Shown here piece after piece: positions 8,975 through 10,269 of a stretch of 64,000 bases of DNA. This DNA is from Myxococcaceae bacterium. GTDB taxonomy: Bacteria; Myxococcota; Myxococcia; Myxococcales; Myxococcaceae. Numbering within the stretch: position 1 is the stretch's first letter; each line of letters begins with the position of its first letter. The position numbers were made by a program, and so were the translations under genes. The notes under the pieces were generated by a model that searched no databases, was not told the DNA's origin, and was given only the letters and a program-made list of their open reading frames with translations. Location: the NCBI GenBank assembly GCA_003818285.1, contig RPRB01000006.1, positions 2,504 to 66,503 of the forward strand, written 5' to 3'.

Positions 8975-9425
8975 CGTGGTCACCGACGGGCTTCCCGGCA
9001 TTCATCTCGTCGTACCACCACGCGATGCGGCGGTTCAGGATCGCCCGCTGGTCCGCGTCCGGGGGCTTCCACCCGGCGGGCTTCACCACGTCGAGCGAGT
9101 TCTTCCGCTTGGATCTGTCGTCGTCCCCGCCGGTCGCCCGCTCCTTCGCCATGTTCGCCCTCTGGACGGTGTCCCAGAGCTCGCCCCAGGGCAGCCCCAT
9201 CATGTGCCCGGTGCCCAAGGCGACGTAGACGAGGTCGAGCAGCGCGTCCGCCGCCTTCTGAAGGCTGCCCTCCTCGACCGCCAGCTTGTACTCCAGCAGC
9301 TCCTCCATCATGAAGTCGAACCGGAACTTGCTGTCGCCCTCGCTGAGCAGCTTCGGCGGGCCGGCGTCCGACCGATCGAGCCCGAACTTCCTGTGGAAGG
9401 CGCCGACGTCTTCAAACATTCCCAT
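8964..9425 (-). CDS. MazG-like nucleoside triphosphate pyrophosphohydrolase
   Basis: All-alpha pattern FRFDFMMEELLEYKLAVEEG ... DALLDLVYVALG (EExxE / DxxD metal-binding motifs). Confidence 0.7.
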   Translation of the reverse strand: MGMFEDVGAFHRKFGLDRSDAGPPKLLSEGDSKFRFDFMMEELLEYKLAVEEGSLQKAADALLDLVYVALGTGHMMGLPWGELWDTVQRANMAKERATGGDDDRSKRKNSLDVVKPAGWKPPDADQRAILNRRIAWWYDEMNAGKPVGDHDGR

Positions 9426-10269
9426 TCTGCTTCTCCTGTGCCAGGTAGGTGTCCATGTCGTTCTTGAAGACGTGGAGCGAGGTCATGTGCATACTGTAGG
9501 TCCAGGGCACGATCTCGTTCCACACCTGCGGGTTCAGCCGGCGGCACTGCTCGATGACCCAGAGCAGGAGCCGGACGGCGAGGTAGCAATCGTCGTTGTA
9601 GTGCCGGATGAGGTCGCAGGACCTGAGCGGATACCAGATCATCGCCCGCTTGTCCCGGACCATGATCTGGTAGCCCAGGGTGCAGACCTTTCGGCCCCCG
9701 TCGGACAGCCCCGTGTCCTCCGGGAAGAACAGCGGGATGTAAGCCTGCCTTGTGTGGGGCTCCCGAGCCAGCAGGTCGATCAAATCCTGGAGGTCCCCGT
9801 AACCATGGGCGATCCCGTACTTGGGCCGGTTGTCCACCGCTGGCCATTTGCGAAGCCCGTACTCGCCGGCCGGCGGCTTGGGCAGGACCCCATCGTCGGT
9901 CCGACGGGCGAACTTCGGCCAGAGCCGTTCCATGTACGTGTGGTTGAAGCGTTCGGTTTTGAACTTCGCTGCCGACAGGCCCCACGGCCACTTCGCCCAC
10001 TGGGTTCCAGGGTTCAGGGGCTCGCCCCCGACGCGCTCGAGGAAGTGGTCGTCGGCCCACGGCCGATTGCAGTTCGTGTCCTGTCGCCAGTGCTCCAAGC
10101 CTTCGCCCCCGTGCAGGGGCACGCTCACGTTCACGTCCTGGAGCTCGAACGTGTCCGTGTTGACCGGGACGCCCTGCCACCGCTCAGTCTTGACCGGCGG
10201 GGCCTTTCTCATCTCCGCCTTCAGCTTCTCCCTCAGCTCCGTGAACGTCTCCGCTTGCACCGCCAGCAT
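9412..10269 (-). CDS. thymidylate synthase / dCMP hydroxymethylase superfamily enzyme (divergent)
   Basis: VCTLGYQ holds the candidate catalytic Cys. RSCD lies exactly 20 residues later, as in ThyA, followed by SLHVFKND. The N-terminal half is atypical. Confidence 0.75.
   Translation of the reverse strand: MLAVQAETFTELREKLKAEMRKAPPVKTERWQGVPVNTDTFELQDVNVSVPLHGGEGLEHWRQDTNCNRPWADDHFLERVGGEPLNPGTQWAKWPWGLSAAKFKTERFNHTYMERLWPKFARRTDDGVLPKPPAGEYGLRKWPAVDNRPKYGIAHGYGDLQDLIDLLAREPHTRQAYIPLFFPEDTGLSDGGRKVCTLGYQIMVRDKRAMIWYPLRSCDLIRHYNDDCYLAVRLLLWVIEQCRRLNPQVWNEIVPWTYSMHMTSLHVFKNDMDTYLAQEKQNGNV

Follow-up and report, generated by a model that had tools for sequence, protein, structure and literature searches.

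A thymidylate synthase-like phage gene with aspartate at the specificity position, predicted to act on deoxycytidine monophosphate

The subject of this report is a gene of the thymidylate synthase (TS) superfamily in a 64,000-nt stretch of contig RPRB01000006.1, deposited as Myxococcaceae bacterium (the whole stretch is called the window below). The window is a tailed-phage genome with a GC content of ~64%, and most of its genes lie on the minus strand. The TS-like gene overlaps a gene for a nucleoside triphosphate (NTP) pyrophosphohydrolase, which in turn overlaps a gene for a deaminase of the deoxycytidine monophosphate (dCMP) type; on its other side lie genes for a protein resembling C5-cytosine DNA methyltransferases (MTase-like) and for an amide ligase resembling asparagine synthetase (AsnB-like). 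The features that carry the argument are the following.

9412..10269, minus strand: gene for a 285-aa member of the TS superfamily, a predicted C5 one-carbon transferase of dCMP (open reading frame (ORF), PHROG, PDB profile, AlphaFold2 model, Foldseek)
10273..10285, minus strand: Shine-Dalgarno-like GGAGG...GGAG, in which GGAGG precedes the ATG (10269) by ~10 nt (read from the sequence)
9691..9693, minus strand: Arg193 codon, at position -3 relative to the catalytic Cys (position of ThyA L143 and T4 D145; alignment)
9682..9684, minus strand: codon of the catalytic Cys196 (ThyA C146), followed by Thr197 at the H147 position (alignment, codon mapping)
9613..9624, minus strand: R216-S217-C218-D219 (ThyA R166-S167-C168-D169; alignment, codon mapping)
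9595-9597, minus strand: codon of N225 (codon mapping)
9592-9594, minus strand: codon of D226 (codon mapping)
9589..9591, minus strand: GAT codon of Asp227 (ThyA Asn177, T4 Asp179, MilA Asp186; profile alignments)
9466..9474, minus strand: H266-V-F268 (ThyA H207-x-Y209; alignment)
8964..9425, minus strand: MazG/PRA-PH-type NTP pyrophosphohydrolase, whose gene runs across the TS-like stop codon (Pfam PF01503, E 1.8e-13; PDB DR2231, 3nl9)
8456..9001, minus strand: dCMP-type deaminase, overlapping the PRA-PH gene (Pfam PF00383, E 3.9e-23; PDB 7fh4, 2w4l)

The extent of the TS-like ORF and the positions of Cys196, R216-D219 and D227, as given in the initial annotation, agree with translation and codon mapping. 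The ORF has a G+C content at third codon positions (GC3) of 0.89. A database call of the same protein (P0001) begins at M20 rather than M1; since residues 1-20 are conserved across homologs (M1 and F9 in at least 90%), are modelled by AlphaFold with predicted local distance difference test scores of 96-97, and follow the upstream GGAGG, the ATG at 10269 is the right start. Just upstream, at 10184-10612 on the minus strand, there is also a 142-aa ORF of doubtful true extent with two CxxC pairs (zinc-ribbon-like); it shares 86 nt with the beginning of the TS-like gene and 95 nt with the end of the MTase-like gene.

The query matches PHROG_160 "thymidylate synthase" (E 1e-21). A Pfam search with the query itself gave no hit, and NCBIfam gave just a sub-threshold archaeal TS hit; several relatives clear the cut-off of Pfam PF00303 (Thymidylat_synt), with matches beginning at about residue 106-120. 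The top PDB sequence match of the query is MilA, a CMP hydroxymethylase, and a profile of 25 metagenomic homologs (A1) matches MilA (3.5e-5), AfhB of phage HY126 (1e-4), the TS of L. casei, and T4 gp42 (E 0.027). The AlphaFold2 model has a predicted template modelling score of 0.79, with low confidence at residues 85-160 and 183-195. Foldseek aligns it over 270-290 columns, at a probability of 1.00, to MilA, AfhB and many TS structures, and also matches it to viral TS and dCMP hydroxymethylase models. As modelled, the entire 285-aa protein has the TS fold. The initial annotation had held that the N-terminal 170 aa do not look like ThyA, and this is right for recognisable sequence but wrong for the fold, given the length of the Foldseek alignments and the starts of the Pfam matches.

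The family is large, with >2000 metagenomic homologs and, at E <1e-30, 152 clusters at 50% identity. Conservation was read from two sets, namely 127 close and cultured-phage homologs and the representatives of 50%-identity clusters from an exhaustive search that covered 1.84 billion cluster representatives (132-136 of which cover a given site). The TS-like enzymes share a family-specific invariant block, NPGxxWxxWP...FNHxYMERxW, and the protein has large family-specific insertions at residues ~83-111 and 118-150. Five homologs of ~390-400 aa (P0122, P0128, P0138, P0142, and P0146) carry an in-frame LAGLIDADG homing-endonuclease domain of ~120 aa directly before FNHxYMERxW.

The residue that distinguishes cytosine from uracil in this superfamily can be placed with precision. 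There are 20 residues from C196 to R216 and eight from D219 to D227, matching C146 to R166 and D169 to N177 of E. coli ThyA. In profile alignments built with the family hidden Markov model and without hand anchoring, D227 stands ungapped opposite N177 of E. coli ThyA, D179 of T4 gp42, D186 of MilA (PMC5175136 for its numbering and role), the corresponding Asp in AfhB (9iqu), and D196 of the Xp12 TS. All five references (MilA, AfhB, T4, Xp12, and E. coli) have their specificity residue at +8 from the aspartate of RSxD. The position is Asp in 127/127 homologs, the cultured-phage proteins at 28-47% identity included, and in 132/132 cluster representatives; the catalytic Cys is equally constant (127/127 and 135/135), and C196, R216-S-C-D219 and H266-V-F268 are invariant in the family. 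The initial annotation, which had placed D227 opposite Asn177 by hand, had feared that a one-residue gap would bring N225 there instead. In fact a one-residue shift gives D226, where family members have either D or N (compare N178 in the N178-D179 of T4), and N225 requires a shift of two. Because N225 is variable across homologs (mostly R/A/P/Q), it is ruled out as the specificity residue. The predicted helix of the model begins at residue 224, which puts D227 near its start and agrees with ThyA Asn177, which we take to lie in the first turn of its helix. By all these alignments, the specificity position does carry Asp, and selection on it is strong.

We consider it likely that the TS-like protein works in the nucleotide pool of the phage, as a C5 one-carbon transferase specific for dCMP. 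That a dCMP-type enzyme lies here, rather than one for the synthesis of deoxythymidine monophosphate (dTMP), was already the proposal of the initial annotation; it is supported by Asp227, Thr197, Ser217/Arg174, the MilA and AfhB matches and the neighbouring genes, and the inaccurate remarks on the gap and the N-terminus leave it unchanged. The residue after the catalytic Cys is Thr or Ser in the family, as in T4 gp42, MilA and AfhB; besides position 177, it is position 147 that tells TS homologs of modified contigs apart from those of unmodified contigs (PMC8670742). Ser217 and Arg174 fit the signature for deoxyribose and not that for ribose in MilA-type enzymes, where Lys133' and Ala176 stand at these positions (PMC5175136).

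An ordinary thymidylate synthase, or a hydroxymethylase of deoxyuridine monophosphate (dUMP), fed with dUMP by the neighbouring deaminase, is in our view very improbable. It would draw on the adjoining dCMP deaminase as the classical supplier of dUMP, on the lack of any other ThyA or ThyX found in the window, and on the deposition of cultured-phage homologs in GenBank as "thymidylate synthase". However, the invariant Asp occupies the position at which uracil-specific enzymes have Asn, including the dUMP hydroxymethylase of SPO1 (PMC5175136) and the Kuttervirus enzyme, in which the Asn lies one residue further along. Moreover, Thr or Ser replaces His147 and Arg193 replaces Leu143, the Pfam TS model misses the query, the tail that seals the active site is absent, and one cultured-phage relative (MW202777) also has ThyX.

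The C-terminus bears on the product. The protein stops 17 aa after H266-x-F268, compared with 55 aa after Y209 in E. coli, so that it is ~38 residues shorter at this end and lacks the tail that closes the active site. TS seals its active site with this tail, and the T4 dCMP hydroxymethylase (dCH) is likewise tail-less (PMC6400193). Searches of the window, and of +-10 kb in five relatives, found no dihydrofolate reductase (DHFR), second ThyA or ThyX, and no DHFR was found near the TS-like gene in seven loci. Because there is neither a sealing tail for hydride transfer nor an accompanying DHFR, we tentatively favour 5-hydroxymethyl-dCMP as the product, a call that we hold at slightly less than even weight. 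It is also in keeping with the nearest relatives of the protein, which are non-reductive enzymes, and with the coexistence of ThyX in MW202777.

The reaction that we envisage, which we infer to be folate-dependent, would run as follows. Cys196 would attack C6 of the cytosine ring, and Asp227 would read and protonate the N3/N4 face, as Asp179 does in the T4 dCMP hydroxymethylase. The one-carbon unit of methylene-tetrahydrofolate would then be added to C5, and water would trap the exocyclic methylene intermediate to give 5-hydroxymethyl-dCMP. The MazG/PRA-PH protein, a predicted dCTPase/dUTPase-like supplier of dCMP, may convert deoxycytidine triphosphate (dCTP), and deoxyuridine triphosphate (dUTP), to the monophosphate substrate and thereby deplete the canonical triphosphate. 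The deaminase could turn dCMP or 5-substituted dCMP into the uracil or thymine series, and the modified deoxycytidine, once phosphorylated, would enter phage DNA.

Several observations weigh against a hydroxymethyl product. The position three residues before the Cys (-3) is Leu in TS, Asp or Glu in hydroxymethylases and hydroxylases, and Asn in Xp12, but here it is an invariant Arg (127/127 homologs and 136/136 cluster representatives) and the hydroxymethylase signature is thus missing; in T4 dCH, the D145N substitution abolishes activity (PMC6400193). An acid from elsewhere in the poorly modelled loop (E184, D185, or D190) could possibly serve the site. The Ser-x-Tyr element (T4 Ser94 and Tyr96) has no confident location in the protein, and the N-terminal half aligns ambiguously, with W117 opposite W80 according to hhalign and Pfam and opposite W61 in the AfhB alignment. 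The context of W117 is LWPKF, compared with LWDKF in Xp12 and IWDEW in E. coli. A first mapping of W91/W94 to W80/W83 and of Y112 to Y94 was abandoned, contradicted by the hhalign and Pfam placement of W117, and the candidates for the Tyr94 equivalent (Y112 in H110-x-Y112, the variable position 151, and Y157) differ between alignments; product calls from Tyr94 or Ser-x-Tyr were therefore dropped. No dNMP kinase like tmk was found in the window or in the flanks of the relatives, and the literature yielded no experimental data for any member of the clade. If all cytosine were replaced, the MTase-like neighbour would be left without its ordinary substrate. Also to be counted here are the affinities of the nucleotide-pool genes, which lead to the next alternative.

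The three contiguous, overlapping genes for the Asp177-type TS-like protein, PRA-PH and deaminase (8456-10269) make up, within 3 kb, the module that MetaGPA links to modified cytosine: these three co-occur as markers of cytosine-modified viral contigs (PMC8670742; bioRxiv 10.1101/2024.12.05.627091). In the latter study, seven deaminase-linked Asp177 TS homologs were assayed, of which five made 5-methyl-dCMP; the deaminases preferred 5-methylcytosine (5mC) or 5-hydroxymethylcytosine and are thereby a source of dTMP, as they are in the 5mC phages Xp12 and PaMx74 (bioRxiv 10.1101/2024.12.05.627091). The window deaminase and PRA-PH protein are closest to the partners in these phages: identity is 42% (PaMx74) and 38% (Xp12) for the deaminase, and 45% between PRA-PH and the N-terminal part of a protein adjoining the Xp12 TS. 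The latter is deposited as "hydrolase (HAD superfamily)" (L006, 46207-46980), and the match means that Xp12 also has a pyrophosphatase component.

The enzyme may thus possibly be a dCMP methyltransferase as in Xp12, making 5-methyl-dCMP for 5mC DNA while the deaminase converts part or all of it to dTMP, although we regard this as less probable than hydroxymethylation. As a variant, all 5-methyl-dCMP would pass to dTMP, leaving DNA cytosine free for the adjacent C5-methyltransferase-like enzyme, which is conserved and requires unmodified cytosine. Apart from the kinships just mentioned, methylation agrees with the Asp at position 177, with a -3 position that has no acid (likewise in Xp12), and with the window, in which neither another dTMP synthase nor a dNMP kinase was found. 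On the contrary, the protein is nearer to MilA, T4 dCH and AfhB than to TS, and its alignment to the Xp12 TS is partial, with an identity of only ~24%. The TS of Xp12 and PaMx74 has canonical length with a C-terminal segment, and in both genomes, which we examined, DHFR adjoins it; here the Asp is present, but similarity is local, the segment is missing and no DHFR was found. Finally, the ThyX of MW202777 would make a bypass to dTMP redundant there.

A flavin-dependent 5-hydroxy-dCMP synthase, like RB69 gp48, DLP3 gp80 and HY126 AfhB, is a very unlikely identity. AfhB (9iqu/9iqc) is among the top matches in both sequence and fold, and the short C-terminus and Asp177 are shared. However, D219 is Asp in 127/127 homologs and 130/132 cluster representatives, so that the D169N mark of these synthases (PMC13326640) is absent; L143E is absent too, with Arg in its place, and a cluster of arabinosyl- or glycosyltransferases does not adjoin the gene. 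No T4 beta-glucosyltransferase was found in the window or the relatives.

The module recurs in five metagenomic relatives (L008, L009, L015, L016, and L017) at 59-72% identity, all of which have the order AsnB-like, MTase-like, (N6/N4 methyltransferase), TS-like. The PRA-PH gene directly follows the TS-like gene in four of the five, and the window-type arrangement of all three genes is seen in L008, L015 and L016; in L009 the partner genes (PRA-PH and deaminase) lie ~8 kb away, and L017 has TS-like and PRA-PH genes with no deaminase called (a deaminase was called in the other four). In L015 the PRA-PH protein and the dCMP deaminase are fused in one 282-aa ORF (11457-12305), which argues that the two act consecutively.

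Homologs that are 28-47% identical occur in the cultured phages PMBT14, Desulfofustis phage, Polewnik, GTE2, MW202777 and CP3, where the gene order is dNMP kinase, NTP-PPase, a hypothetical protein of ~270 aa, TS-like, deaminase and PolA, though not every gene is annotated in each. MW202777 combines a TS-like gene (deposited as "pyrimidine hmase") with ThyX, deaminase, dNMP kinase and NTP-PPase, and the TS-like protein is not the dTMP synthase there. The cultured-phage members keep the invariant residues but have no MTase-like or AsnB-like genes. Literature searches on PMBT14, GTE2, Serbin and Polewnik found no DNA-modification data. The ~270-aa protein just upstream of the TS-like gene in these phages (L001 7165-7953, which is PMBT14; L012 4038-4877; L013 5111-6004; L005 6769-7587; L014 5184-5933) has a PC[IM]Q ... 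YRSTE ... Asp(+8) pattern of its own, and Foldseek matches it weakly to the TS-like model; it is a candidate for a second, strongly diverged paralog with the TS fold, and no homolog of it was found in the window.

Further genes are conserved around the TS-like module.

10518..11936, minus strand: C5-cytosine DNA methyltransferase-like gene with altered motifs GHPEC and MDDLP (Pfam PF00145, PDB 3g7u, alignment with five relatives, synteny)
11938..13308, minus strand: glutamine-hydrolysing asparagine-synthetase-like amide ligase with N-terminal MCG and SGGLDS PP-loop (Pfam PF00733 and GATase_6/7, TIGR01536, synteny)
5106..6116, minus strand: Amidoligase_2 enzyme (Pfam PF12224, E 1.3e-42; also in L008 and L016)
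3187-3699 and 4087-4869, minus strand: two GGACT/AIG2-like gamma-glutamyl cyclotransferase-like genes (domain matches; recur with the amidoligase in L008 and L016)

The MTase-like protein has GHPEC instead of PPC in motif IV and MDDLP instead of ENV in motif VI, and it ends in a Cys cluster. It forms a strictly conserved adjacent pair with the AsnB-like gene in the window (10518-13308, minus strand) and in L008 (5753-8553), L009 (4175-7044), L015 (4091-7953), L016 (4133-7053) and L017 (7014-9810). The L015 copy of the MTase-like gene (5491-7953) has a ~330-aa insertion with DUF559/MTES_1575 endonuclease domains; it sits exactly between HPE and the catalytic Cys, terminates in VVHN|C, and looks like an active-site intein. 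The arrangement of the pair is similar to that of CmoX/CmoY, a system of 5-carboxymethylcytosine with an amide ligase (PMC12783734), but the window protein lacks the SPPC motif, and no CmoA was found. The identification with CmoX was rejected: apart from the lack of SPPC, the PDB hits at E <= 1e-3 do not include SpCmoX (8YF3). In L008 and L016, the Amidoligase_2 gene and the two GGACT genes (window 3187-6116) recur at a distance of a few kb from the TS-like module, and perhaps they are functionally linked to the TS-like gene.

The conserved MTase-like and AsnB-like pair hints at further hypermodification of cytosine, and any part of the MTase-like protein in the pathway is something that we infer only. 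The clade has neither the hallmarks of the methylases (Leu at -3, C-terminal tail) nor that of the hydroxymethylases (an acid at -3). One could speculate that it makes a C5-substituted dCMP from which an undescribed hypermodification of cytosine starts, and that the MTase-like and AsnB-like enzymes, perhaps joined by the Amidoligase_2 and GGACT proteins, complete this on DNA; we judge this rather unlikely. Less likely still is that the enzyme performs some other C5 chemistry on dCMP, with another nucleophile or cofactor, and feeds a new hypermodified cytosine that its neighbours finish. Its active site fits no characterised class (the invariant Arg at -3, Gln at the equivalent of ThyA R127, Phe at that of Y209, and the FNHxYMERxW block, beside which some members carry LAGLIDADG insertions); the gene is kept beside MTase-like, AsnB-like, Amidoligase_2 and GGACT genes; and flavin-dependent hydroxylation was an unexpected precedent in this superfamily (PMC13326640). 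An objection is that the cultured-phage members keep the same residues with neither MTase-like nor AsnB-like genes, so that the chemistry is independent of those genes. In addition, direct evidence of an alternative cofactor or nucleophile is lacking, and the N-terminal equivalences are uncertain.

Outside this region, the following genes of the window were recognised.

33195-34160: major head protein
47400-50021: portal
50014-52212: large terminase
55667-58444: primase/polymerase
62171-63994: family A DNA polymerase

At 52655-53374 (minus strand) lies a homolog of the GcrA-like cell-cycle regulator, which the relative L016 has as well; together with the Brevundimonas-phage homologs of the TS-like protein, this gene content suggests an alphaproteobacterial host for the phage. 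In public runs, the locus occurs solely in freshwater-sediment and soil metagenome assemblies, and megablast of window 8000-14000 against phage genomes gave no match. The head-morphogenesis block includes a family 2 glycosyltransferase and a Methyltransf_24 S-adenosylmethionine-dependent methyltransferase (36802-37527 and 38392-38985, both minus strand), which could glycosylate virion proteins or, less likely, DNA. Adjoining the portal gene, an 1109-aa protein (44071-47400, minus strand) combines collagen triple-helix repeats, DUF4082 and a glycine-rich domain; its GC3 is below that of the neighbouring genes, and it was therefore missed by a codon filter.

Phages replace cytosine with 5-substituted cytosines to evade restriction and other nucleases, and enzymes of cytosine modification already serve as tools, for example the 5mC-selective deaminases in methylome sequencing. 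The logic of the present module (a phage Asp177 TS homolog with a pyrophosphatase and a deaminase) is known, whereas the TS-like clade is divergent and new. Judged on its residues, the clade is not classified by the published rules for methyl and hydroxymethyl products, and a single assay on a member outside those rules would extend the prediction of one product versus the other. Family members annotated as "thymidylate synthase" are found in cultured phages of Gordonia, Mycobacterium, Pseudomonas, Serratia, Brevundimonas and Clostridium. If our prediction is true, these annotations are wrong and the phages, some of which are held in teaching or therapy collections, carry modified cytosine. 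The MTase-like and AsnB-like neighbours could, in addition, uncover another route of hypermodification.

Among known systems, T4 gp42 dCMP hydroxymethylase (1b5e, 6a9b) shares with the TS-like protein the fold, Cys-Thr, R-S-x-D with Asp at +8, H-x-aromatic and the absence of a tail. Its N178-D179 corresponds to D226-D227 (N-D in some relatives), and in both phages a dCTPase-type enzyme and a dCMP deaminase belong to the nucleotide-pool context. On the other hand, the profile match to gp42 is only local (E ~1e-6 against six sequences), the essential Asp145 of T4 is replaced by Arg193, Ser94-x-Tyr96 is not identifiable, the TS-like protein has its family-specific insertions, and a glucosyltransferase does not adjoin the window gene. 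MilA, the CMP 5-hydroxymethylase of mildiomycin synthesis (5b6d, 5jnh), is the best PDB match by both sequence and fold, with Asp186 for Asp227 and Cys155-Thr for Cys196-Thr. Nevertheless, identity is ~15%, MilA has the Lys133/Ala176 ribose signature (Arg174/Ser217 here) and an Asp at -3, and it belongs to a bacterial antibiotic pathway rather than to a phage.

The Xp12 and PaMx74 TS, which convert dCMP to 5-methyl-dCMP, have the same module logic and Asp at the N177 position, but they form another clade of canonical length with a C-terminal segment and adjacent DHFR; the Xp12 enzyme, which has Cys-Pro, aligns to E. coli ThyA along its full length at 27% identity, whereas the window protein reaches its ~24% to Xp12 in a partial alignment. 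RB69 gp48, DLP3 gp80 and HY126 AfhB (9iqu, 9iqc) are likewise short TS-fold enzymes of dCMP with Asp177 and are among the top matches, but they differ in D169N, Glu at -3, and the use of flavin and O2 (PMC13326640), as opposed to Asp219 and Arg. With E. coli ThyA, the protein shares the fold, C146, R166, S167 and D169 at the same spacing, H207 and probably W80 (W117), and departs from it in having D, T, R, Q and F in place of N177, H147, L143, R127 and Y209, respectively. Finally, the dUMP hydroxymethylase of Kuttervirus (ViI-type) and SPO1 is also a phage TS homolog for a modified pyrimidine, with a weak tblastn match (24% identity, E 2e-4), but it has the uracil-specific Asn, Asp at -3, and a long unrelated C-terminal extension.

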